This document shows, piece after piece, positions 4,456-44,793 of a stretch of DNA of 44,793 bases. A program made the position numbers and the translations under genes. The notes under the pieces were generated by a model. That model did not search any database and had not been told where the DNA came from. It saw only the letters and a program-made list of their open reading frames with translations. The stretch is from a phage. The stretch's first letter is position 1; each line of letters starts with the position of its first letter. Location of the stretch: the sequence record PZ445535.1. One strand, given 5' to 3'.

Positions 4456-5217
4456 TTAGCGCGGAATACCGCAAATCTCGTTTAGTGTTTTCACGTCAAG
4501 CGCTACTGCCGTTGACTTTTTCTCTTCCTGCGGGATGAACTGTTTAACTTCGGGCCATGCCTTAATAAGTTTGGTGTCTGTGGTGTATTTATTCAATGTT
4601 CCCATAACCGACAATTTAAACTCATCATATTTTGCACGTAAAGCCCGGCGTGCTTTGTCGTTCTTATCCAGACGTTTGCAAAACTCATGATCTGCCGGGT
4701 AATCTGCACGACCCCGCGGCATGTAGATCGGCACTTGCTCGCCTTCCTCGTTGAGTTCCACCAGCGCCGCAAGTAGCGCCGTCGCAAACCCCGGTACGAT
4801 TTCGCCAATATCAGGGGCCATCATGTTATTGAATTTATCCTCCCAGTACCCGCGATGGCAACGCCAGCTATAGTTATCGCCACTCAATGACAGTGTGCGA
4901 ATATTCCCGCCCATGTTGACTTCGAACGTTGCGTCATATACAGACCCGATGCCGTGGGGCATGTCTTTGTTATGGCTGAAGGTAGCGCGGCTGGCGTACA
5001 CGCTTATGCTAAACATATTGTTGTATGCGTCTTGAAAGCTGCGCATCATTTTCTGCAAACCGACGAAATTGGTAACACCTTCCGGCATCTGATCCATGGT
5101 GATAGCCATAGCAAGGTCGCGCGATTCGGCCATTATCTTTTTGGCCTGCTTCGTGATTTCGTGGTCGGCCAGGATGTTAGCCAGAATCTGCTTTTTAATG
5201 TCTTTGGTCAGTCTCAT
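4456..5217 (-). CDS. hypothetical protein (reverse-oriented moron in head module)
   Basis: 253 aa (MRLTKD...); RBS GAGGAA 6 nt upstream of ATG at 5217; own sigma70-like promoter; convergent terminator shared with Rz1; no motif recognised. Confidence 0.6.
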   Translation of the reverse strand: MRLTKDIKKQILANILADHEITKQAKKIMAESRDLAMAITMDQMPEGVTNFVGLQKMMRSFQDAYNNMFSISVYASRATFSHNKDMPHGIGSVYDATFEVNMGGNIRTLSLSGDNYSWRCHRGYWEDKFNNMMAPDIGEIVPGFATALLAALVELNEEGEQVPIYMPRGRADYPADHEFCKRLDKNDKARRALRAKYDEFKLSVMGTLNKYTTDTKLIKAWPEVKQFIPQEEKKSTAVALDVKTLNEICGIPR

Positions 5218-5247
5218 CGTCATTTCCTCATTGGTTGGTGTGCAACC

Positions 5248-5276
5248 AATATATTGCAACCAACCCCCGTATGCAA
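5248..5276 (-). promoter_or_regulatory. sigma70-like promoter for moron gene (TTGCAT-N17-TATATT)
   Basis: Minus strand reads TTGCAT acgggggttggttgcaa TATATT ggttgcacacc...GAGGAA; contains ATTGGTTGCA motif. Confidence 0.45.
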
Positions 5277-5283
5277 GCAAATT

Positions 5284-5311
5284 TTGCGATTATTTTTATC
5301 ACTGATAATAT
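5284..5311 (+). promoter_or_regulatory. sigma70-like promoter for scaffold/capsid operon (TTGCGA-N16-TAATAT)
   Basis: TTGCGA at 5284-5289, TAATAT at 5306-5311, about 55 nt upstream of scaffold ATG. Confidence 0.4.
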
Positions 5312-5366
5312 TAGGGGCGTGAAGTCGAGCGGGTGGCCCGTTCTGCCACAATCCCTGGGGGATGTT

Positions 5367-6071
5367 ATGAAACTGACTAAAGCAGAATATGACGCGTTGC
5401 CAGAAGGCATGAAGGCTTTATTTGTTGCCGACGGTGACGGGTACAAGGCGACTTTTATGACCGCCGAAGAAGTACAGGCCGAGATCAAAGGTCTGAAGGA
5501 TAACAATGCAAAGCTGGTAGGTGAGAAGAAGGCAGAAGCCGAACGCCGTGCCGAAGCGGAGCGCATCGCTAAAGAGAAAGAGGAAGCCGCCGCGCGCAAA
5601 AATGGCGACCTCGAAGCGATCGACAAGTCATGGAAGGACAAATTCGCTAAATACGATGCGGATACGCAGGGCAAAATCGAAGCCTACCGTAAACAGATTC
5701 ACGATCTTACCATCGGCAGCGCAGCTAAAGACCTGGCATCAAAGCTGTTCGGTAAGAATGCTGGCATTATGCAACGCCACGTTATGGACCGCCTTGCATT
5801 GGAAGACGGCGAAGACGGCAGCCTGAAGGTGCGCGTATTGAAGGACGGCAAACCGTCCGCACTGACTATGGAAGAACTAGAAAAAGAGTTCCGTAGTAAC
5901 GAAGATTTCGCATCCGTCCTGGCTGGTACTCCTGCCGGTGGTGCGCCGAGTAAGCCGACCCACGTCATCGACGATCCGAAATCTAAGATCCAGATGGGCC
6001 ATAGCTTCGGCATTACTGACCTTACCAAACAGGCCAGCGATATTATCGCCAAACTGGGCGACGACGAGTAA
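5367..6071 (+). CDS. scaffolding protein (putative)
   Basis: 235 aa; highly charged with AEAERRAEAERIAKEKEEAAARK coiled-coil segment; immediately upstream of major capsid gene. Confidence 0.5.
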   Translation: MKLTKAEYDALPEGMKALFVADGDGYKATFMTAEEVQAEIKGLKDNNAKLVGEKKAEAERRAEAERIAKEKEEAAARKNGDLEAIDKSWKDKFAKYDADTQGKIEAYRKQIHDLTIGSAAKDLASKLFGKNAGIMQRHVMDRLALEDGEDGSLKVRVLKDGKPSALTMEELEKEFRSNEDFASVLAGTPAGGAPSKPTHVIDDPKSKIQMGHSFGITDLTKQASDIIAKLGDDE

Positions 6072-11190: not shown

Positions 11191-11256
11191 AGGTTGGTTG
11201 CAAAATGACTGATACAATACAAACGGCAACTTGCATAAAAAGGGGGGGACTGCATA

Positions 11257-20118: not shown

Positions 20119-20143
20119 GAAGGGGCCAAACGGCCCCTTTTTC
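20119..20143 (+). terminator. intrinsic terminator after J-like gene
   Basis: AAGGGGCC-AAAC-GGCCCCTT hairpin followed by TTTTT. Confidence 0.7.
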
Positions 20144-21107
20144 AATACATATTAGGAAGGACAATAAGCGGAGTAGGTACTGCTATGTTGCGGTTGGGTA
20201 TCAGGAATTGCCGCCGTGAGTAGTTACCGACGACGCGGCTTTTAGCGATACGCACTTTGTTACCCGCCATGCGTATACCGTTCATGCGTACGTGGTTGTA
20301 ACCGCCGTTATTCTCTATCAGCGTGCCGGTGTATGAAAGCTGGATCATACTGTTTCCAATATCCTGGTCCCCCGTGCCAATATTAATCACGCGATTAAAA
20401 ACGAATGGCTTCTTGACCGTGGAGAACGTGACCTGCCCCTGGTTGTTGGTCATCGTGATACCAGCCCCCGGCTGAGGCGGCGTATTGTTGAATATGGCGA
20501 GGTCTAAGTCAACGGCAGCCGCCACGTCGTCAATCCCGCCGTACGAGGCATTGCGGACAATGATATTGGTCCCGTCGAAGGCTACCGACACGTTGCCGTC
20601 GTCCCATCGCGCAAATGGGATGCCACCTACCGGTAATTTCATACTCCCGTTGACGCGAACGCGGCCCACATACTGGCAGGTCATCAGCTTTGCTACGTTA
20701 GATATGGCAGTGAAGTCGGTAGAGTTAGCTACCAGAAGCCCCGCATTGCGCGACCCCACCGGCAGCACTTCCATAATAGTCCCGGCCCATTGAGGCAGGC
20801 CGCTATACGCCCTGAACGCATCAGCGCCACGCAGCGTTACGCCGTTATTGCCGTTTCGCGACACAGACGTAACGTACATCGGATCAGGGATGACCAGAGT
20901 CTGGTCTAATACCTCCATCACTTCAACCGGTCGGGTAAGCACTACTACGACCTGCGATCCTGGCGTTAAGGGTGTATTGATTGTTAGCGTTTTGTCAGAC
21001 TGACAGCGCTGATTGAAGTTTGCACAAAAAGACGGGGCACGAAGCCCCGCGGTGATTTCCATTCTTGGCCTGCCATCGTTATATTCGATAAGAATGCCTG
21101 CACCCAT
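20142..21107 (-). CDS. putative receptor-binding / host-range protein
   Basis: 321 aa; Gly/Asn/Thr-rich, beta-type composition; RBS GGGAG 8 nt upstream; directly downstream of a lipoprotein gene on the same strand, inside the tail fiber region. Confidence 0.4.
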   Translation of the reverse strand: MGAGILIEYNDGRPRMEITAGLRAPSFCANFNQRCQSDKTLTINTPLTPGSQVVVVLTRPVEVMEVLDQTLVIPDPMYVTSVSRNGNNGVTLRGADAFRAYSGLPQWAGTIMEVLPVGSRNAGLLVANSTDFTAISNVAKLMTCQYVGRVRVNGSMKLPVGGIPFARWDDGNVSVAFDGTNIIVRNASYGGIDDVAAAVDLDLAIFNNTPPQPGAGITMTNNQGQVTFSTVKKPFVFNRVINIGTGDQDIGNSMIQLSYTGTLIENNGGYNHVRMNGIRMAGNKVRIAKSRVVGNYSRRQFLIPNRNIAVPTPLIVLPNMY

Positions 21108-21109
21108 AA

Positions 21110-21334
21110 TTACCACTCCCGTGATTTAACTGATACTGTACCTGAGAAGTTACCATCTGCATCGGCGGACAAGCCAGTGTAGCGCATGTCAATGTCTCCG
21201 GTCGCGACCTTTTGCCCATCTACATAACGCAACATGCAGCTTCCAGCGACGTAGGTTACGCAATCACCGTTATGGCGCTCAACCGCACAACCGGACAGCA
21301 TAGCAACGACTAAAATACTTAATAAAGTTTTCAT
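21110..21334 (-). CDS. lipoprotein, putative superinfection-exclusion (Llp/Cor-like)
   Basis: 74 aa; signal peptide MKTLLSILVVAMLSGC with lipobox; RBS AAGGAG 8 nt upstream; own promoter; next to putative RBP. Confidence 0.5.
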   Translation of the reverse strand: MKTLLSILVVAMLSGCAVERHNGDCVTYVAGSCMLRYVDGQKVATGDIDMRYTGLSADADGNFSGTVSVKSREW

Positions 21335-23974: not shown

Positions 23975-24508
23975 TTATTTAAGTGCGTTAGTCACCAGTG
24001 TTTTTTCCATCTTGCGGAAGTCGTCCAGGGTCATCCGGATTTTAGACCCATCTTCGCCGTGCAACGTAACCAGTGGTTTAGTTTTCACTAAAACACCCTC
24101 CGGCAGCTTCCACGCTTCGACAGTTTTCTTCACTGCATCCTGGAAAGCGGTTGCAGCGATCTTGCCATCCAGCTTAACCGCTACGCCCTTCAGGCTGTCA
24201 AACTGTGCTGCCGTTGTGTCGATCTGGACCTCGTCGTGCACGGTGGCGTATGACTCACCCAGTAGAGCGGCATACGCTACCAGGTCGACGATGTTGTCTT
24301 CCCGGTGCTTGCGGTGCTGGCGTACCAGCTTCAGGCAAATCAAGAAGGTCCAGGCTTCTTGCTCGGTAAGGTCGCGACCGGTAAGCGCGTTAAACACGGC
24401 GGCAATTTGTTTAGCGATGCGTTCTTCTTTCGCGTTGCCATAGCCGTTTTCTTTTCCGCGCTGTTCCATAGTGGTGGCGGCGTTTTTGCAGTATTCGAAT
24501 GCTTTCAT
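23975..24508 (-). CDS. hypothetical protein
   Basis: 177 aa from ATG 24508 (MKAFEYC...); RBS AGGAG 7 nt upstream; sigma70-like promoter and 5' stem-loop upstream. Confidence 0.5.
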   Translation of the reverse strand: MKAFEYCKNAATTMEQRGKENGYGNAKEERIAKQIAAVFNALTGRDLTEQEAWTFLICLKLVRQHRKHREDNIVDLVAYAALLGESYATVHDEVQIDTTAAQFDSLKGVAVKLDGKIAATAFQDAVKKTVEAWKLPEGVLVKTKPLVTLHGEDGSKIRMTLDDFRKMEKTLVTNALK

Positions 24509-24554
24509 GGTTTGTCTCCTTTGACGGGAGGCGGTATTGCCTCCCGATGTGGTT

Positions 24555-24583
24555 AATATAATTGGTTGCATTATTGGTTGCAA
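24555..24583 (-). promoter_or_regulatory. sigma70-like promoter (TTGCAA-N17-TATATT) with 5' stem-loop
   Basis: Minus strand: cacTTGCAAccaataatgcaaccaatTATATT; GC stem-loop CGGGAGG...CCTCCCG at 24525-24546 at predicted 5' end. Confidence 0.45.
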
Positions 24584-25041
24584 GTGAATTTTGCAAGATT
24601 CACTGAATAAATGTGCGGGACCAGTTCTTCGCACGCCCGTTTGATGGCGGCTATGTTCTTCGCGCAGTCGTCAATGATGACCAGTTCGTTAACTTCTGCG
24701 TAGCACACCAGGCCAAATACGGAACGAGCTTTATATTCCGGCGGCGGGGTGTCATCCAGCATGTGGCGCAAGAACAGACGGCCTTTCGGGAATCGGTCTA
24801 ATTGCTCTTTCGTTGTCTCCCAGCATTCAGACTGGCGGTTTGACAGGTACGCGATGTCGAAGCCCTGTTTAGCGTACATGCGCAATAACGGCAGCATGTC
24901 ATAATTAATGTCTTCGCGGACGTGGGCCTTATGCCACTTCGCCCAAAACGTTGATTTAGTCTTGATCCCCGGAACTAGGTCGTCGCGCACACTGCTTGAC
25001 CCGTTGATAACGCCATCTAAATCGCAAATCAGTAGTTTCAT
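24571..25041 (-). CDS. HAD-superfamily phosphatase-like protein
   Basis: 156 aa; HAD motif I DLDGV at residues 7-11, then YLSNR and K...IIDD motifs. Confidence 0.55.
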   Translation of the reverse strand: MKLLICDLDGVINGSSSVRDDLVPGIKTKSTFWAKWHKAHVREDINYDMLPLLRMYAKQGFDIAYLSNRQSECWETTKEQLDRFPKGRLFLRHMLDDTPPPEYKARSVFGLVCYAEVNELVIIDDCAKNIAAIKRACEELVPHIYSVNLAKFTCNQ

Positions 25042-25259
25042 TTTAATTCCGCCATTAAATTTTCACGTACAATACGGGCCGAGAATGCGTCGCACACAAG
25101 ATGGCAACGCGCCGTCATGACAAGCCAGCCAGTTAGGTCAAGGCCCAGCAATTGATGTGGTTGGCTTGCGCGCCTTACTTTATTTCCAGGGAAAACCTGG
25201 TAGCGTTTAATTATTTCATCCACGACGCGAGGACTTCGGTCGACGACTAAGATATTCAT
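25038..25259 (-). CDS. hypothetical protein
   Basis: 73 aa; RBS AAGGTG 7 nt upstream; ATGA overlap with downstream gene. Confidence 0.4.
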   Translation of the reverse strand: MNILVVDRSPRVVDEIIKRYQVFPGNKVRRASQPHQLLGLDLTGWLVMTARCHLVCDAFSARIVRENLMAELK

Positions 25260-25725
25260 TTAATTCACCTTCGCTCATTATTTCGATTTGTGCGCTGCCG
25301 TTTGGCGGCACTTCTTCAAAGATTATCAATTGCTGGCATTTGTTGTTACTCGGCCCGACCTTACCGGTGACGGCGTGTATAAACCGGATCCGCCAGTCCA
25401 GCAAAATAATCAGGTTGGCTGTTTGCCTTGCCAGTTTGGCCCACTTCGTGGTCGTATCCTGGTTGAGCAACATTACCGTTCTACGCCCCTGCGATGCGCA
25501 AGTCACCCACGGCAGCGGGTCGGAATACGGCGGATTGCACCACTTCCACCCGGTTAACTCTGACCAGTCAGCATCAAGTGCGCTGTGCTCTTTCGTGAAG
25601 TAGCGCGGTAATAGATGGTTGTGGTCGCTCGCCGCCATGTCGTAGCGGAATTTAAACGCCTTGCGCAGTGGCTTAAATAAAGCGGGCGGCGTTCGCCAGC
25701 TATCCTTCTGCTCATTCTCCGTCAT
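25216..25725 (-). CDS. DNA N6-adenine methyltransferase (phage Dam-like)
   Basis: 169 aa from ATG 25725; N-terminal WRTPPALF and catalytic NPPY motifs; start overlaps upstream gene by 14 nt (translational coupling). Confidence 0.6.
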   Translation of the reverse strand: MTENEQKDSWRTPPALFKPLRKAFKFRYDMAASDHNHLLPRYFTKEHSALDADWSELTGWKWCNPPYSDPLPWVTCASQGRRTVMLLNQDTTTKWAKLARQTANLIILLDWRIRFIHAVTGKVGPSNNKCQQLIIFEEVPPNGSAQIEIMSEGELNEYLSRRPKSSRRG

Positions 25726-26176
25726 GCTGCGGGTCCAGTGCGTAAAGTGGGATCTGTTTGGCGCTTTCCCACAGGCGTTTAATTCTTTCCTGCTCGCCTT
25801 TACCCATCTGGCGCATGTCCGTACTATAGTTGCCGTTGGTGGTGTCACGCCACGCGATCAGCACAAGGTCTTTACGGTCGATCTTCGTTGTGCGGCCTTT
25901 CGGACGGACGTATTCTTCAGCACGTTTGCAATGCTCGCGCAGGGCATCGGCGGTTAGCCGGGTGAGCGATACGGATGTTGTGTACCCGGTGCGCTGCATA
26001 ATGGTGATCAGTTCGCCCAGCAGTTCGAAGCGTTCCGCCAGTTCCTTGCGGGCCTTCTCTTCGGCTTCATAGCTTGCCAGGTAGGTATTTGCCAACGCGG
26101 TAGCGCCGTCCGCTTTCTCGCGGGCTTCAAGACACTGTGCTACCCAGTACGCTTTTTCTTCTTGTAAAATTTTCAT
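25712..26176 (-). CDS. hypothetical protein
   Basis: 154 aa; RBS GGAG 8 nt upstream; TAATG overlap with upstream gene. Confidence 0.5.
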   Translation of the reverse strand: MKILQEEKAYWVAQCLEAREKADGATALANTYLASYEAEEKARKELAERFELLGELITIMQRTGYTTSVSLTRLTADALREHCKRAEEYVRPKGRTTKIDRKDLVLIAWRDTTNGNYSTDMRQMGKGEQERIKRLWESAKQIPLYALDPQHDGE

Positions 26177-26498: not shown

Positions 26499-26822
26499 TT
26501 ATGCAAAGAAATTTGGATCGCTCATCACATCCACAAGATAAAGGTTGTTAAGGCGGTTGCCGTAGTGGCCTGGCGTGCGCTGACGGCACACAACAGCGTA
26601 GCCCGGTGGGATGGTATTTCCGGTTGCCAGAATCCACGCCACGCGCGCGCCGTTTAGTGATTTACCGTTGTATTCGATGCGAGTGCCACCATCGGCAGTG
26701 TTAAGGCTGCCAATCTTCTTACCAGTGGAATTGAGGCGGATAACGCCGGTCTGGCTATCGTAATTAAACAGTTGTTTGGTCAGTGCTACCGAAAAATCAA
26801 TTGGTTCAAAGATAGTGTTCAT
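26499..26822 (-). CDS. HNH_3-like domain protein (possibly degenerate)
   Basis: 107 aa; FNYDSQTGVIR...GKSLNGARVAWILATG...GY pattern resembles HNH/AP2-type N-terminal domains but the usual His residues are not evident; RBS GAGGA. Confidence 0.35.
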   Translation of the reverse strand: MNTIFEPIDFSVALTKQLFNYDSQTGVIRLNSTGKKIGSLNTADGGTRIEYNGKSLNGARVAWILATGNTIPPGYAVVCRQRTPGHYGNRLNNLYLVDVMSDPNFFA

Positions 26823-27535
26823 TTTAAATTTTCCTCATTGACTGCAATCGCGAAGCCGCGCGGTGTGAGCGACCTGATTAATTTAGTGCGGGCGGACTTG
26901 CCGCCGAGCAGACTATACTGCTTGGAGTACCCTTTTTCAACGAAAACAGGTCTCTTCTCCGGCATCCTGAAGCCGTTTCCAGTCCATAAGCAAGTCAGCT
27001 TCGGGTAGGAATCACGCGCGTTGATGTATTCCGGGAATAATGGGTGCACATCGTCTTCCGGCAGGTAGCCTCCATACTCCCACGGGTTAAATGAGTGGTC
27101 TGGCTTACGCCACTGGGTGGATAGCACACTGCGCGGATTCTCTATCATGTACGGCACCTCGAAGAAGTCACCGAGAAATGCCGCAATCTTCGCTGTGCGC
27201 ACTGCCTTAAGCTGAAAGGCCGGATCTTTCGCACGCTTGCGAGGGAAGGCAGGCGCACCGCTAACCGCAAGGTCCGTACACGGCGGAAAGGCGTAAATAA
27301 TATCGGGCGTGCCAAACCCACCCGCCATAGCGCGGTCAACGAAGTCCAGATCGATAAACACGTTCTTATAGCGAATGCCGCGCCCGTAAAGCCGGTAGTG
27401 ATTGTAGGAGCCGTGGTCGGCCCCGTCGAAGTTAAAGCAGGTGCACTTATGCCCCATCTCGGCAGCACGCTCGATCATAAGGCCGCTGCCGTCGAATAAT
27501 GACCAGATGTTTAGTATCCTAACTCGCTTATTCAC
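26819..27535 (-). CDS. compact DNA (cytosine-5)-methyltransferase-like protein
   Basis: 238 aa; motif I-like LFDGSG, PC motif AFPPCTDLAVSG, ENV-like MIENPRSV; GTG start overlapping helicase stop with RBS GAGG 6 nt upstream. Confidence 0.55.
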   Translation of the reverse strand: MNKRVRILNIWSLFDGSGLMIERAAEMGHKCTCFNFDGADHGSYNHYRLYGRGIRYKNVFIDLDFVDRAMAGGFGTPDIIYAFPPCTDLAVSGAPAFPRKRAKDPAFQLKAVRTAKIAAFLGDFFEVPYMIENPRSVLSTQWRKPDHSFNPWEYGGYLPEDDVHPLFPEYINARDSYPKLTCLWTGNGFRMPEKRPVFVEKGYSKQYSLLGGKSARTKLIRSLTPRGFAIAVNEENLK

Positions 27536-38920: not shown

Positions 38921-39030
38921 AATTTGCGCGCATTGGTTGCCGATATGGGAATTCCCATATCGCTAAAAGATTAAATTCTGCGCGCATTGGTTGCCAGATT
39001 GAGCATTAAATCTATATCGCATTGGTTGCC
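38912..39030. repeat. three direct repeats containing GCGCATTGGTTGCC plus perfect 22-bp palindrome
   Basis: 30-bp repeats at 38912-38941 and 38966-38995 (54-bp period), partial third at 39018-39030; palindrome CGATATGGGAATTCCCATATCG at 38941-38962. Confidence 0.75.
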
Positions 39031-39068
39031 GTGTAGTGCTAAATAAGTGAATAGTTATGCAAAATAAG

Positions 39069-39240
39069 TGCATAAAACAAACGGGACAAAAACGGGACAA
39101 ACTACAAGCGGGACAAAACGGGACGTCCCGCCGTCCCCGTCAGGCGTGGTGCGGATTTGAGGCGAACGGGACAAGCGGGACAGACCACAGTCTTTCAGAC
39201 TAGACGGGGGGTATTGTCCCCCCTCCGTCTGAGACTGCAT
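39069..39240. repeat. iteron-rich element B (second copy of element A core)
   Basis: 32-mer GTGCATAAAACAAACGGGACAAAAACGGGACA identical to 11018-11049; GGGACGTCCCGCCGTCCC; CGGGACAAGCGGGACA; G6/C6 inverted repeat at 39188-39237. Confidence 0.8.
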
Positions 39241-39396
39241 AAAATCTCTGGTTGCATAATCAACGGCAGCATAGTGAAAATTGCGGCGGGGGTAGATCTC
39301 GGCAACCAATGCATGTTGGATAATGGAGAGTGAAAAATGCAGTTTGCAATTGCAACTCATAGCGATCAGCATTTCCATGCGCGTGATTGATATTGG

Positions 39397-39425
39397 TTGC
39401 ATTCAGCCTGGCACCTTGCTATATT
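39397..39425 (+). promoter_or_regulatory. sigma70-like promoter (TTGCAT-N17-TATATT) for early genes at 39454+
   Basis: attggTTGCATtcagcctggcaccttgcTATATTggttgcacaccaac; shares a 20-nt block with the promoter at 5248-5276. Confidence 0.5.
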
Positions 39426-39453
39426 GGTTGCACACCAACATGAGGACTGAACG

Positions 39454-39759
39454 ATGAGAGCATTAATCTGGAGTTACACATCAGCGGTCGCAGCGCTCTA
39501 TGAAGCGAAGCACACAAACGGCAACGCCGACCACGCACGCCAGGCTGTCATGTTCGCGCAGCAGGCAATCTTTGCAGCGTTCGACAACATGGACGCCAGC
39601 CTGGATGAACTGGAACCATTGCGTGTGGCAATCTGCGAGTATGCGATGAAATTCGCCCGTGAGCGTCTTGCTTACCGGTTTGGCATCGGCGAAACGGCGA
39701 CGGCTAACATCGCCCGCATTCAGGCCCAGCGTGAGCTACACGCCTTACTTGCGAAATAA
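39454..39759 (+). CDS. hypothetical early protein
   Basis: 101 aa; RBS GAGGA; first gene after promoter TTGCAT-N17-TATATT. Confidence 0.5.
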   Translation: MRALIWSYTSAVAALYEAKHTNGNADHARQAVMFAQQAIFAAFDNMDASLDELEPLRVAICEYAMKFARERLAYRFGIGETATANIARIQAQRELHALLAK

Positions 39760-42236: not shown

Positions 42237-42644
42237 ATGTTAAAAAGTATTCTTGATCATAATGCGGACGCGCTCGATGCGTTGTCTAAAACGGAAGACG
42301 CTGGCGCGCGTCGAATCATTGCAGACACCATCAGCCATGCCGGAGTGTTTGGTGCAAGCCTTCCGGGACCGAAGCCGGATGTGAAGGTGACAAGCGCCAC
42401 AGTAACGGTAACACCAGAGGCAGTTACAATCGGCACCCAGTCTAAGGCTATGGTGGCGGTGCAACCGGCAGGGGCGACCGATAAATCCGGCGTGTGGATT
42501 AGTGGGTCGCCAACCATCGCCACCGTTGACGCTTCGGGTAATATCGACGGCAAAACGCCCGGTTCTGTCGATATTATTTGGGTGGCTAAGGATGGAAGCG
42601 GGGTGTCGGGCCGAAAAACGGTAACTGTGGCAAACGCCGAGTAA
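42237..42644 (+). CDS. bacterial Ig-like (Big_2-type) domain protein
   Basis: 135 aa; C-terminal VTVTPEAVTIGTQSKA...GSVDIIWVAKDGSGVSGRKTVTV beta-sandwich-like pattern; RBS AAGGGGGAG; terminator downstream. Confidence 0.45.
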   Translation: MLKSILDHNADALDALSKTEDAGARRIIADTISHAGVFGASLPGPKPDVKVTSATVTVTPEAVTIGTQSKAMVAVQPAGATDKSGVWISGSPTIATVDASGNIDGKTPGSVDIIWVAKDGSGVSGRKTVTVANAE

Positions 42645-42649
42645 AGAGC

Positions 42650-42677
42650 AAGCCCGCAACTATGGCGGGCTTTTTAT
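42650..42677 (+). terminator. intrinsic terminator after lysis cassette / Ig-like gene
   Basis: GCCCGC-AACTATG-GCGGGC hairpin followed by TTTTT. Confidence 0.7.
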
Positions 42678-42680
42678 TGC

Positions 42681-42710
42681 TTGACTTGCAACCAATTAAT
42701 ATCTCATACT
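42681..42710 (+). promoter_or_regulatory. candidate promoter (TTGACT-N18-CATACT) with TGCAACCAAT motif
   Basis: TTGACTtgcaaccaattaatatctCATACT directly after terminator; upstream of HTH-phosphoesterase gene. Confidence 0.3.
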
Positions 42711-42762
42711 TCTGTCGCCGTGGTATATTGATCGCGGTCAAACTGAATCAGGAAAATATACG

Positions 42763-43905
42763 ATGCACCCTCAAACCAAAATTACAGACGAGCAGTTGAT
42801 CGCCGAAATCCAGGCGGGAACGACCGCGAAAGATATTGCTAAGAAATACGGGATTGCACTGCGCAATGTTTATATGCGCAAAGCACGCTTATCTAAAAAG
42901 GGAATCGGTCACGGTAATGATGCCGTAATTCGTAAGCGGGTTGCCGATGGCTTCGGCGTGAAGCGTGTCTCCGCCCTGGTGCGTGGCAATGGCGAAGAGG
43001 TCATGTCATGGGTTATCACAGAACAGGACAAAGAGCGACAGCTTGAGGCGATGCGCGCAGTGCTGGACGGCATGAACAGCGAAATCACACCGGCAGCACC
43101 AGTAAGCGCCCCGCCAGTACCGATCCAGGCGCTTGACCTGCTCAACCTGTACACCGTGTCTGACTTCCACCTGGGAATGCTGGCATGGGGCGAGGAGACT
43201 GGCGAAGACTGGGATATGGCGATTGCCGAAGACCTGTTCTACCGCTGGTTTGTCGAAGCCTTCGCACGCGCACCGGACGCAGGCACTGCCGTAATTAATA
43301 TCCTCGGTGATATGGCGCACTTTGACAGTCTCGATGCCGTTACTCCCGCCAGTGGTCACATCCTTGACGCCGACACCCGCTACCAGAAGCTGGTCCGCTA
43401 CATGATTCGCATGGTGCGCAATGTGGTGGAACTGGCACTACAGAAGCACCACAAAGTCAAACTGCTAATTGTGCAGGGCAACCATGACGAAAGCGGAATG
43501 ATCTGGCTGGCGGAGATGTTCGCTACGCTGTACGAGAACGAGCCGCGCGTTGAGGTAGACACGTCGCCAGATGTCTATAAGATGGTCCAGCACGGTAAGA
43601 CTACGCTGTTCTTCCACCACGGGCACAAGGCTAAATTTGACGCTATCGAGCCGGTCATGATTTCGAAATTTCGTGAGGCGTTCGGGTCCAGCCAGTACAG
43701 CTATGCGCACGTAGGCCACCTGCACCACCAGAAGATTGTCGAATCGCGCAACATGATTGTTGAACAGCACCGAACGCTTGCCGCGAAGGACGCCTACGCC
43801 AGCCGAGGCGGTTGGATGAGCGGACGCAGTGCAAACGTGATAACCTATAGCGCGAACTACGGTGAAGTAGCACGCTTAACCATTAGCCCGGAAATGTTGA
43901 AATGA
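42763..43905 (+). CDS. HTH domain - metallophosphoesterase fusion protein
   Basis: 380 aa; N-terminal HTH-like TAKDIAKKYGIALRNVYMRKARL; calcineurin-like motifs SDFHLG (DxH), ILGDMAHFD (GDxxD), QGNHDE (GNHD/E), HHGH, GHLHH. Confidence 0.6.
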   Translation: MHPQTKITDEQLIAEIQAGTTAKDIAKKYGIALRNVYMRKARLSKKGIGHGNDAVIRKRVADGFGVKRVSALVRGNGEEVMSWVITEQDKERQLEAMRAVLDGMNSEITPAAPVSAPPVPIQALDLLNLYTVSDFHLGMLAWGEETGEDWDMAIAEDLFYRWFVEAFARAPDAGTAVINILGDMAHFDSLDAVTPASGHILDADTRYQKLVRYMIRMVRNVVELALQKHHKVKLLIVQGNHDESGMIWLAEMFATLYENEPRVEVDTSPDVYKMVQHGKTTLFFHHGHKAKFDAIEPVMISKFREAFGSSQYSYAHVGHLHHQKIVESRNMIVEQHRTLAAKDAYASRGGWMSGRSANVITYSANYGEVARLTISPEMLK

Positions 43906-44114
43906 TTAGACAAGTATTCATGAGCACGCAGGCCGCACGCCTGGCTGAATTACGCAAACAACTGGAAGGATTGCGCCGATTCGAGCGCACAGCGGCAGCG
44001 GTAGGAATGAGTATGTCGGAACGGATCGAGATACTCACTCAAATTCGCCACACAGAGGGCGCTATCGAGGCAGTTACCGGTATGCTGACAAGATACTACG
44101 GTAGACCCGTTTAA
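43902..44114 (+). CDS. hypothetical protein
   Basis: 70 aa; ATGA overlap with upstream gene; intrinsic terminator downstream. Confidence 0.45.
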   Translation: MIRQVFMSTQAARLAELRKQLEGLRRFERTAAAVGMSMSERIEILTQIRHTEGAIEAVTGMLTRYYGRPV

Positions 44115-44123
44115 CCGCACTAC

Positions 44124-44148
44124 AGGCCCGCTTATGCGGGCTTTTTTG
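44124..44148 (+). terminator. intrinsic terminator upstream of terS promoter
   Basis: GCCCGC-TTAT-GCGGGC hairpin followed by TTTTTT. Confidence 0.7.
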
Positions 44149-44173
44149 TGTCTGCAATTCTCCCTGATATAAT
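44145..44173 (+). promoter_or_regulatory. extended -10 promoter (TGaTATAAT) for terS-terL operon
   Basis: Perfect TATAAT at 44168-44173 preceded by TG at 44165-44166; weak -35 TTTGTG; 6-bp stem-loop in leader at 44180-44196. Confidence 0.5.
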
Positions 44174-44242: not shown

Positions 44243-44793
44243 ATGGCAGAAATCAAAGTAAAAGGCCGTCGTGCGAAGTTAGACGGGCGAGTCGCAGTCA
44301 CTCCACGCCGCAAACCGGGCGAGCAAACCGAACATACCAATCTCGGACCTGAAATCGAATACGGCAAGCGCCGGAAAGGGGGCAAGTGTGGTCGTCCTAC
44401 TGATTATCGGTCTGTTTATTGTCGCCAGTTGCGAGATTATTTCGCTTCAGCCGACGCATGGCAAGTCAACTACTCGGACAAGGGCGCGGCGCAAGTCATC
44501 CCACGTAACAAGATGCCAACATTTGGGCGCTTTGCGGCGGAAATCGGGGTCGGCGTAGCATGTCTGTATCGCTGGGCGCGTAAGCATGAAGAATTCGCCG
44601 AGGCGATGGCTGACGCTATGGAACTGCAAAAGACCTTCCTCATGGAAGCTGGCGGCGTGACTATCGCAGCAGGCTTCGCTGCATTCCTGCTTAAAGCAAA
44701 CCACGGCGTCCGCGACGATGCACCGCTGGAAGATGACGACGATGATAACGGCGACGTAACCGTTGAGCCGGTCGGTAAAGGGCAGGGCGAGTG
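44243..44793 (+). CDS. terS: terminase small subunit-like protein (3'-partial in window; stop overlaps position 1 if circular)
   Basis: Open frame from ATG 44243 (RBS AAAGGGG) to window end with no stop; HTH-like FGRFAAEIGVGVACLYRWARKHEEF; codon 184 would be T-G + A(1) = TGA overlapping terL ATG; strong extended -10 promoter upstream. Confidence 0.5.
   Translation, partial: MAEIKVKGRRAKLDGRVAVTPRRKPGEQTEHTNLGPEIEYGKRRKGGKCGRPTDYRSVYCRQLRDYFASADAWQVNYSDKGAAQVIPRNKMPTFGRFAAEIGVGVACLYRWARKHEEFAEAMADAMELQKTFLMEAGGVTIAAGFAAFLLKANHGVRDDAPLEDDDDDNGDVTVEPVGKGQGE

Follow-up and report, generated by a model that had tools for sequence, protein, structure and literature searches.

What does a phage gain from a metallophosphoesterase (MPE) tied to a DNA-binding domain? 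This question is raised by a gene found close to the packaging gene terS in the phage sequence PZ445535.1, which was analysed as one stretch of 44,793 nucleotides (nt), hereafter the window (44.8 kb). The window is a permuted, nearly complete genome of Dhillonvirus (HK578-like siphovirus, coliphage; the genus also includes Bas15 and Bas17 of the BASEL collection), since terL starts at its position 1 and terS runs off its end; its last 3.8 kb are ~95% identical to Escherichia phage Ioannina and Dhillonvirus LM40P1. The 380-residue product combines an N-terminal helix-turn-helix (HTH) domain with a C-terminal MPE core. The evidence detailed below shows that the active site is intact and the protein an enzyme; DNA is probably its substrate, in whatever role. 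More tentatively, the protein could be an HTH-tethered DNase, mainly used for degradation of the host chromosome. The gene (hereafter the phosphoesterase gene) and its parts are located as follows.

42763–43905, plus strand: HTH-metallophosphoesterase gene, 380 amino acids (aa), member of phrog_704, homologue of T1 gp16
42784–42897, plus strand: three-helix LuxR/GerE-like HTH, residues 8–45 (AlphaFold2, Foldseek and family HTH matches)
42955–43083, plus strand: conserved beta-hairpin (66–73/79–86) and long helix (87–107), residues 65–107
43138–43902, plus strand: MPE core, residues 126–380, with all five motifs

The open reading frame (ORF) begins with an ATG preceded by AGGAAA. The five signature motifs of the binuclear metal site by which MPE superfamily members are recognized (DxH, GDxx(D/H), GNH(D/E), H, GxH) are all present in its product and can be read directly as D134-F-H136, G182-D183-M-A-H186-F-D188, G239-N240-H241-D242, H285/H286/H288 and G318-H319-L-H321, within the beta-sandwich fold of this superfamily. 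The initial annotation had indeed listed a complete set, although motif II reads GDxxH / GDx4D and not literally GDxxD; a GDxxH motif II is also found in Mre11. Among 141 cluster representatives, which are 32–46% identical to the query, residues D134, H136, G182, D183, N240, H241 and H286 are invariant, and H186, D188, D242, H285, H288, H319 and H321 are at least 90% conserved. Such an invariant two-metal site shows that the protein is an enzyme with an intact active site, and not a degenerate scaffold of the kind seen in the B-subunits of Pol alpha/delta/epsilon or in Vps29. The core also includes a family-specific insert (residues 186–205, with conserved T194-P195...D202), followed by a basic helix (R206, K209, R212, R216, R219).

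The sequence is that of a divergent MPE member, which explains the empty precomputed Pfam field of its close homologues: the Pfam scores lie below the gathering cut-offs (19.2 vs 21.5 bits for Metallophos, 22.6 vs 27 bits for Metallophos_2); the initial annotation had thus recognized by eye a domain that escapes these cut-offs. The NCBIfam search returned PdeM only (TIGR04123, E=0.041, 13 bits vs a cut-off of 150), and the PADLOC search gave no match. PDB profile searches gave sub-significant matches only, and thus no relative of solved structure at the sequence level; the sole MPE chains were Thermotoga maritima Mre11/SbcD and the Pseudomonas putida 'Nuclease MPE', with non-significant E-values of 0.7–3. 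In structure searches, the nearest folds of the core include SbcD, Mre11 and PolD DP1, the similarity to Mre11/SbcD being no higher than to non-nuclease MPEs. Two further candidates were discarded: phmmer matches to designed armadillo-repeat proteins, which are repeat artefacts, and an assignment to the PPP-type protein phosphatases (lambda phosphatase, PP1, calcineurin), for which neither the specific motifs (GDxVDRG, GNHE) nor closest fold similarity was found.

At the N-terminus, the HTH-like segment spotted in the initial annotation corresponds to a three-helix HTH at residues ~8–45. The AlphaFold2 helices (9–17, 22–29 and 33–44/45) have a predicted local distance difference test (pLDDT) score of 83–88 in the full-length model and of 93–95 when the N-terminal region is modelled alone. 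The best local Foldseek matches are EvgA and LiaR (0.7–0.8 Å over 35 residues, probability 0.95–0.96), then DosR and RcsB, with global E-values that are not significant. The Pfam matches of the query HTH are likewise sub-threshold (GerE, 17 bits vs a cut-off of 23.5). Across the family, N-terminal fragments of 71 diverse members match a wide spread of HTH Pfam families, and a profile built from such fragments finds the PDB DNA-binding domains of GerE, RhlR, NarL, LrpA and LysR-type proteins. The models are thus best described as a generic HTH, to which the LuxR type comes nearest. It is followed by the hairpin-helix element, in which G77 and W83 are near-invariant in the family alignment and for which the fold search of the N-terminal region gave no significant global match, and then by a Pro-rich linker extending to residue ~125.

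Both domains are real, and their fusion is far beyond chance, since the protein matches phrog_704 ('DNA repair exonuclease') end to end at E=2.5e-161 (residues 5–380 vs profile positions 2–390 of 390). The N-terminal half alone still matches this family at E=1.6e-25. A domain search of both halves thus assigns the whole protein to phrog_704, the Pfam HTH and Metallophos matches staying below cut-off; this catalogued family itself carries the HTH, and is not a well-characterized single-function family devoid of a DNA-binding domain. Contrary to what had been initially supposed, the combination is not foreign to well-studied phages: T1 gp16 (YP_003929.1) is a full-length homologue, 45% identical over residues 4–379 (E=2e-108), which matches phrog_704 at E=7.2e-155 and has the same HTH, hairpin-helix and MPE layout. 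The HTH-MPE architecture is therefore already known and catalogued, and both domains appear in GenBank names. Members are indeed called 'winged helix-turn-helix domain-containing protein', 'metallophosphoesterase', 'HTH luxR-type domain-containing protein' or 'DNA repair exonuclease' in GenBank, and 'transcriptional regulator' or 'sigma70_r4_2 domain-containing protein' in other records. These names derive from fold similarity only. The TLS protein Gp66 ('proof-reading exonuclease') would belong to the same family, judging from its position just before the holin and not from its sequence.

The family is widespread. A tblastn search retrieved 2,065 phage records with a homologue (in 1,681, the match spans 80% of the length or more), from Dhillonvirus, Kagunavirus, Jerseyvirus and Drexlerviridae as well as from Vibrio, Rhizobium, Ruegeria and Campylobacter phages. 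An exhaustive HMMER scan yielded 4,688 clusters at 50% identity (1,139 at E≤1e-30), and nearly all of the best 150 clusters are 370–420 aa long, so that the N-terminal extension plus MPE is the standard architecture of the family. Beyond it, the structure search recovered the HTH-MPE layout at 11–20% identity in phages of Bacillus, Lactobacillus, Streptomyces, Microbacterium and Cellulophaga. Where family members occur on large contigs of Agrobacterium and Rhizobium, the surrounding region is prophage-like. Entries in GenBank and IMG/VR reach 97–99% identity to the window protein, and one IMG/VR contig encodes a 100% identical protein. The phosphoesterase gene is a core gene of Dhillonvirus, the protein being found at 80% identity or more in 163 phage records, vs 157 records with terL at 90% identity or more. 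It is also persistent in Drexlerviridae (508 of 522 genomes in a 2026 survey, PMC13164509), and in both the T1 group and Dhillonvirus it is core and followed by a terminator. Both domains are under strong purifying selection: compared with phage HH3, the protein is 94.7% identical (86% at the nt level) and its N-terminal 125 residues 92.8%, vs 68% for the lysozyme and 64–68% for the holins. Core-gene status and strong constraint together make a dispensable accessory (anti-defence) role less likely.

How such a protein might work can be proposed from these features. The LuxR/GerE-like HTH and the conserved hairpin-helix would hold it on double-stranded DNA, where the MPE core with its two-metal active site would cleave phosphodiester bonds, as a DNase dispensing with a Rad50/SbcC partner. 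The main outcome would be the degradation of the host chromosome during takeover, shutting off the host and its defences; nucleotide salvage would be fed where a DNA 3'-phosphatase and a deoxynucleoside monophosphate (dNMP) kinase adjoin the gene. That the enzyme works on or at DNA is indicated by the fusion of a conserved HTH through a conserved linker. We infer that DNA is the substrate, which chromosome is targeted (that of the host) and when the gene is expressed. Breakdown of the host chromosome, with reuse of the nucleotides, is known for both T1 and TLS; according to the authors of the 2024 re-annotation of TLS, the gene products behind it had yet to be identified (PMC11447400). T1 mutants defective in this breakdown were described long ago (Roberts & Drexler 1981).

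The closest precedent comes from phage T5, in which A1, a predicted metallo-phosphatase, is necessary and sufficient for host-DNA degradation in vivo, with the DNA-binding protein A2 as its essential partner (bioRxiv 10.64898/2026.04.02.716235). A1 is pre-early and essential, is needed for second-step DNA transfer and is reported to interact with RNA polymerase; its fold neighbours are double-strand-break repair nucleases and polymerase proofreading subunits (same reference). The MPE core of the window protein shows the same pattern of neighbours, and this protein would be a fused counterpart of the MPE-like A1 and the separate A2. The A1 family (phrog_1745) likewise conserves all five MPE motifs, and shares with phrog_704 an extended motif III, (V/I)xxE(G/S)NHDxxxSxWL. 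A1 is, however, longer by ~150–180 residues, a large additional region preceding its MPE core, and matches phrog_1745, not phrog_704. As motif III alone aligns, specific homology between the two families was rejected: they are analogues of a single superfamily whose orthology cannot be demonstrated. In one branch of the A1 family, ~530 aa long (P0462, P0464, P0465, P0492, P0504) and 45–48% identical to A1 over 87% of its length, the A1 N-terminus is replaced by an HTH (HTH_23, HTH_38, HTH_7 or CENP-B_N) at residues ~8–45, the same place as in the window protein. Since the HTH is fused in this branch while T5 encodes a separate A2, A1-type host-DNA degradation seems to generally need a DNA-binding module, fused or separate.

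A second precedent is Gp48 of mycobacteriophage A10ZJ24, a stand-alone MPE with in vitro DNase activity on linear, circular and genomic DNA, which degrades host DNA, silences or counteracts host defences and is dispensable on Mycobacterium smegmatis (PMC12287305). Gp48 and the cluster A MPEs (e.g. that of Bxb1) are, like the window protein, phage MPEs with five motifs and no Rad50 partner. In contrast, Gp48 has no N-terminal HTH, its catalytic D10 putting motif I at the extreme N-terminus. Sequence links being limited or absent, the analogy to T5 A1 and Gp48 rests on fold, architecture and biology, not on orthology. A more general proposal, speculative and rather doubtful at this stage, is that phrog_704, including T1 gp16 and the Dhillonvirus protein, is the host-chromosome-destroying nuclease of T1-type and related siphoviruses, a single-chain equivalent of A1 plus A2. 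HTH plus MPE would then be a general module for dismantling host genomes, invented repeatedly or very anciently across tailed phages, in which the HTH would target host DNA or shut off host transcription.

Several observations weigh against a host-DNA-degrading role. The hhalign comparison of phrog_704 with the A1 family (42-member profile) aligns only 20–22 columns around motif III, with a probability of 19–23%; there is no sequence link to Gp48, and not a single mycobacteriophage among about 2,055 tblastn-positive records. Host-DNA degradation is reported for T1 and TLS, with no such report found for Dhillonvirus, and genes for a 3'-phosphatase and a dNMP kinase are absent from the window. 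T5 A1 and Gp48 are (pre-)early, whereas the phosphoesterase gene stands beside late-looking lysis and packaging genes. An HTH-tethered DNase would also have to leave phage DNA untouched, and no mechanism for this is apparent. Nucleases and small-molecule phosphodiesterases cannot be told apart by fold similarity. Lastly, the searchable literature yielded no biochemical or genetic experiment on any phrog_704 member, only annotations of the genome-announcement style.

The surroundings of the gene inform about its expression and its possible partners. The relevant features are listed below.

1–1386: terL, at the window start
42650–42672, plus strand: terminator-like hairpin, AAGCCCGC-7 nt-GCGGGCTT then a T-run, closing the upstream unit of lysis and immunoglobulin (Ig)-like genes
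42681–42710, plus strand: promoter-like region, TTGACT-18 nt-CATACT (consensus match only)
42721–42729, plus strand: extended -10-like element, TGGTATATT (consensus match only)
43902–44114, plus strand: 70-aa ORF (phrog_20931, hereafter ORF70), whose ATG overlaps the phosphoesterase stop (ATGA)
44124–44143, plus strand: terminator-like hairpin, AGGCCCGC-TTAT-GCGGGCTT then TTTTTGTG
44165–44173, plus strand: extended -10 element, TGATATAAT, putative separate terS promoter
44243–44793, plus strand: terS (phrog_3064), with no stop before the window end

Because they are bracketed by their own predicted terminator and promoter signals, the phosphoesterase gene and ORF70 look like a private two-gene unit. 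A 30-nt stretch covering the 3' half of the upstream hairpin and TTGACT is 100% identical in phage HH3, vs ~70–86% for the flanking genes. The search for an operator palindrome at the phosphoesterase promoter found the terminator stem only. Extended -10 elements (TGnTATAAT-like) with poor -35 boxes lie just 3' of the hairpins before both the phosphoesterase gene and terS; further ones occur at 11210, 30829 and 39417, and these elements may mark a phage promoter class. ORF70 is predicted to be all-helical, and its counterpart in phage HH3 is 84% identical. Pfam and PADLOC searches matched nothing, and none of the non-Dhillonvirus loci compared has ORF70 beside the phosphoesterase gene. As a mere speculation, its product might modulate or inhibit the phosphoesterase in this lineage specifically.

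In other phages the gene lies elsewhere. In T1 and Webervirus, a helicase gene, a VRR-NUC gene, the Dam methylase gene and small ORFs precede it, and it is followed by an HNH gene, or by the 'polynucleotide kinase' (PNK) and dNMP kinase genes, with the lysis genes beyond. It lies upstream of the lysis cassette in Drexlerviridae, and downstream of it in Dhillonvirus. It precedes an HNH gene in Vibrio phages, and in Jerseyvirus and Kagunavirus-type loci tail genes flank the small island to which it belongs. For a systematic view, ORFs were called in 85 loci, dereplicated to 35, and neighbours within four gene positions were clustered. No conserved partner emerged from these 35 loci: the largest cluster covers four of them, and neither a terminase nor Rad50/SbcC is among the clusters. 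A DNA 3'-phosphatase (HAD_PNKP) adjoins the gene in 4/35 loci and a dNMP kinase is nearby in 4/35, including one locus whose protein is 75% identical to that of the window; such neighbours fit a polynucleotide-to-nucleotide route. A dNMP-kinase-like gene is also found five genes downstream of the family member in an Agrobacterium prophage, and PNK and dNMP kinase are the most frequent genes following the 'exonuclease' in Drexlerviridae without an SH3 gene (PMC13164509).

The 'PNK' label itself deserves a comment. The genes so named in T1 (gp64, 4948–5478), Klebsiella phage Sweeny (5160–5648) and one further surveyed locus (L014, 6122–6610) were compared with known domains. The T1 gp64/Webervirus proteins lack a P-loop kinase domain and have only the 3'-phosphatase HAD domain of PNKP (PF25109, E about 1e-17, with a DxDGT motif); by these signatures they are more likely DNA/RNA 3'-phosphatases than kinases.

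Which other roles could such an enzyme have? The public label 'DNA repair exonuclease' implies a nuclease for recombination or replication, similar to Mre11/SbcD and independent of Rad50, which would trim ends, hairpins or stalled intermediates of phage DNA and feed the annealase/exonuclease pathway of the phage. SbcD, Mre11 and PolD DP1 are among the best folds, the phage has a recombination module (phrog_69 exonuclease, Gp2.5-like single-stranded-DNA-binding protein (SSB)/annealase), the gene follows helicase, VRR-NUC and DNA methyltransferase genes in T1/Webervirus, and the HTH would provide the DNA affinity otherwise conferred by a capping domain and Rad50. This role is nevertheless unlikely. 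Mre11 and SbcD have both a capping domain and a Rad50/SbcC partner and the window protein, at 14–17% identity, has neither: no room is left for the capping domain as the protein ends with the MPE core, and no Rad50/SbcC gene is found in the window, or beside the phosphoesterase gene in the 35 loci and in T1. Profile similarity is restricted to the T. maritima chains at a non-significant E of 0.67–3, the fold likeness extends equally to non-nuclease MPEs, and the Dhillonvirus recombination genes are on the opposite strand, ~8–10 kb away. PolD DP1 and the eukaryotic polymerase B-subunits include an OB-fold domain which is absent from the window protein, and the phage has no PolD large subunit; the eukaryotic B-subunits have lost their catalytic residues, all of which are kept here. 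The P. putida MPE/PdeM, a ligase-associated endonuclease of the DNA damage response, is stand-alone and cuts DNA without Rad50, but it has no HTH, is associated with genes for an Lhr helicase and a ligase, neither of which is present here, and shows only weak motif III matches to the window protein (TIGR04123 as above; PDB 6nvo, E=1.7). Less probable still is a phosphodiesterase acting on small molecules (cyclic (oligo)nucleotide immune signals, 2',3'-cyclic nucleotides, diadenosine tetraphosphate (Ap4A), cyclic AMP), with the HTH as an autoregulator or nucleoid localizer. Several large phage groups carry the gene as a core component, under strong purifying selection, and not as a variable accessory. 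Its promoter has no operator-like palindrome, no similarity to PADLOC entries or known anti-defence proteins was found, its recurrent neighbours act on polynucleotide ends and dNMPs, and it is hard to see what the conserved hairpin-helix and the basic helix would do with a small substrate.

A transcription factor with its MPE acting as a protein (Ser/Thr/Tyr) phosphatase, like lambda phosphatase, and reprogramming host or phage transcription, would account for an HTH of LuxR/sigma-70 region 4 type, for the record names 'transcriptional regulator' and 'sigma70_r4_2 domain-containing protein', and for the reported interaction of T5 A1 with RNA polymerase; it appears improbable. So does, to a larger extent, a packaging-associated nuclease or regulator, aiding terminase on concatemers or controlling late transcription. 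HNH proteins assist cos cleavage in HK97-like phages, HNH endonuclease genes follow the phosphoesterase gene in T1, Jerseyvirus and Vibrio phages, and terS starts (44243) only 338 nt downstream of it in the window. The initial annotation had placed the gene just upstream of terS, but ORF70, the terminator-like hairpin and a putative separate extended -10 promoter intervene. Adjacency to terS was not seen outside Dhillonvirus in any lineage compared: the T1 gene is ~15 kb from terS (circular distance; 32 kb on the linear map), beside the lysis genes, the Jerseyvirus/Kagunavirus-type genes lie between tail genes, that of Ruegeria phage DSS3-P1 is beside a DNA methylase, and no terminase gene recurs among the neighbours. 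Judging from the transcription signals, and from gene order in T1 and in Webervirus, Jerseyvirus, Rhizobium, Vibrio and Ruegeria phages, a packaging link is rejected and this role largely refuted; a function deduced from proximity to the packaging genes is not supported. The DNA-targeted nuclease that had been proposed in part from this proximity holds up on other grounds, as the reading best supported by the HTH, the intact active site, the nuclease-type fold neighbours and the T5 A1 and Gp48 precedents. A selfish, free-standing gene of the homing-endonuclease kind is hardly credible. The HTH-linker-nuclease layout does resemble I-TevI and I-HmuI-type enzymes, the gene has its own promoter and terminators, is often beside HNH genes and changes position between genera, and NUMOD-type Pfam matches occur in 2–3 of the 71 N-terminal fragments. 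It is present, however, in essentially every Dhillonvirus and in nearly all Drexlerviridae at the counts given above, at a position fixed within the genus, and is more conserved than its neighbours, with mostly synonymous change; this distribution and conservation are the opposite of the sporadic pattern of homing genes, hence the rejection.

The rest of the window also deserves description. All its large ORFs could be assigned. The structural set includes the portal, head morphogenesis protein, major capsid protein, tape measure, central tail fibre J and tail fibre. A PolA-type polymerase (matching the phage family phrog_17), a helicase, the phrog_69 exonuclease, the Gp2.5-like SSB/annealase and two DNA methyltransferases are encoded on the minus strand. 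The plus-strand order late in the window is primase-helicase, small ORFs, two holins, lysozyme, Ig-like ORF, phosphoesterase gene, ORF70 and terS. Scans of the window for tRNA and Rfam families were empty. Between the genes of central tail fibre J and the tail fibre, the minus strand encodes a 324-aa membrane protein (20142–21116, phrog_1265, category 'moron/host takeover'); the corresponding position in T1 is held by the Cor superinfection-exclusion gene. A 219-aa ORF (23975–24634, minus strand) matches phrog_9871 and, more weakly, PHROGs labelled 'phosphofructokinase' (E=3.7e-19), an odd label for a siphovirus early-region gene. The two DNA methyltransferases (phrog_111 and phrog_757) lie at 25216–25848 and 26819–27535 on the minus strand. 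In T1 (39024–39737) and Webervirus (Klebsiella phage Sweeny, 2376–3107), a DNA methyltransferase gene is found three to four genes upstream of the phosphoesterase gene; a third one, the methylase gene of Ruegeria phage DSS3-P1 (locus L007, 5100–5903), is immediately downstream of it.

The Ig-like ORF (42237–42644, plus strand) is located directly 3' of the lysozyme gene, within the lysis transcription unit. A short conserved N-terminal segment (phrog_11068) is joined in it to an Ig-like domain of the Big_2 family (Pfam E=5e-11), whereas the counterpart ORF in phage HH3 has 55 aa only, without the Ig domain. An Ig-like protein closing a lysis cassette is unusual, and recalls the stand-alone SH3 protein of Drexlerviridae lysis modules (PMC13164509).

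The sequence feature itself adds nothing new; its value is that of a pointer to function. Few non-structural genes of T1-like, Dhillon-, Kaguna- and Jersey-type phages, which are heavily used in therapy and biocontrol, are as widespread and as well conserved as the phosphoesterase gene, and it bears at least eight contradictory names. If its product is indeed a host-DNA-degrading enzyme, this would settle a question open in T1 since 1981, and nuclease-driven host takeover would gain, next to T5 A1, another and simpler model. The present analysis thus connects this ubiquitous core gene, for all its inconsistent naming, with a concrete hypothesis on an old question of T1 biology that would be cheap to test.

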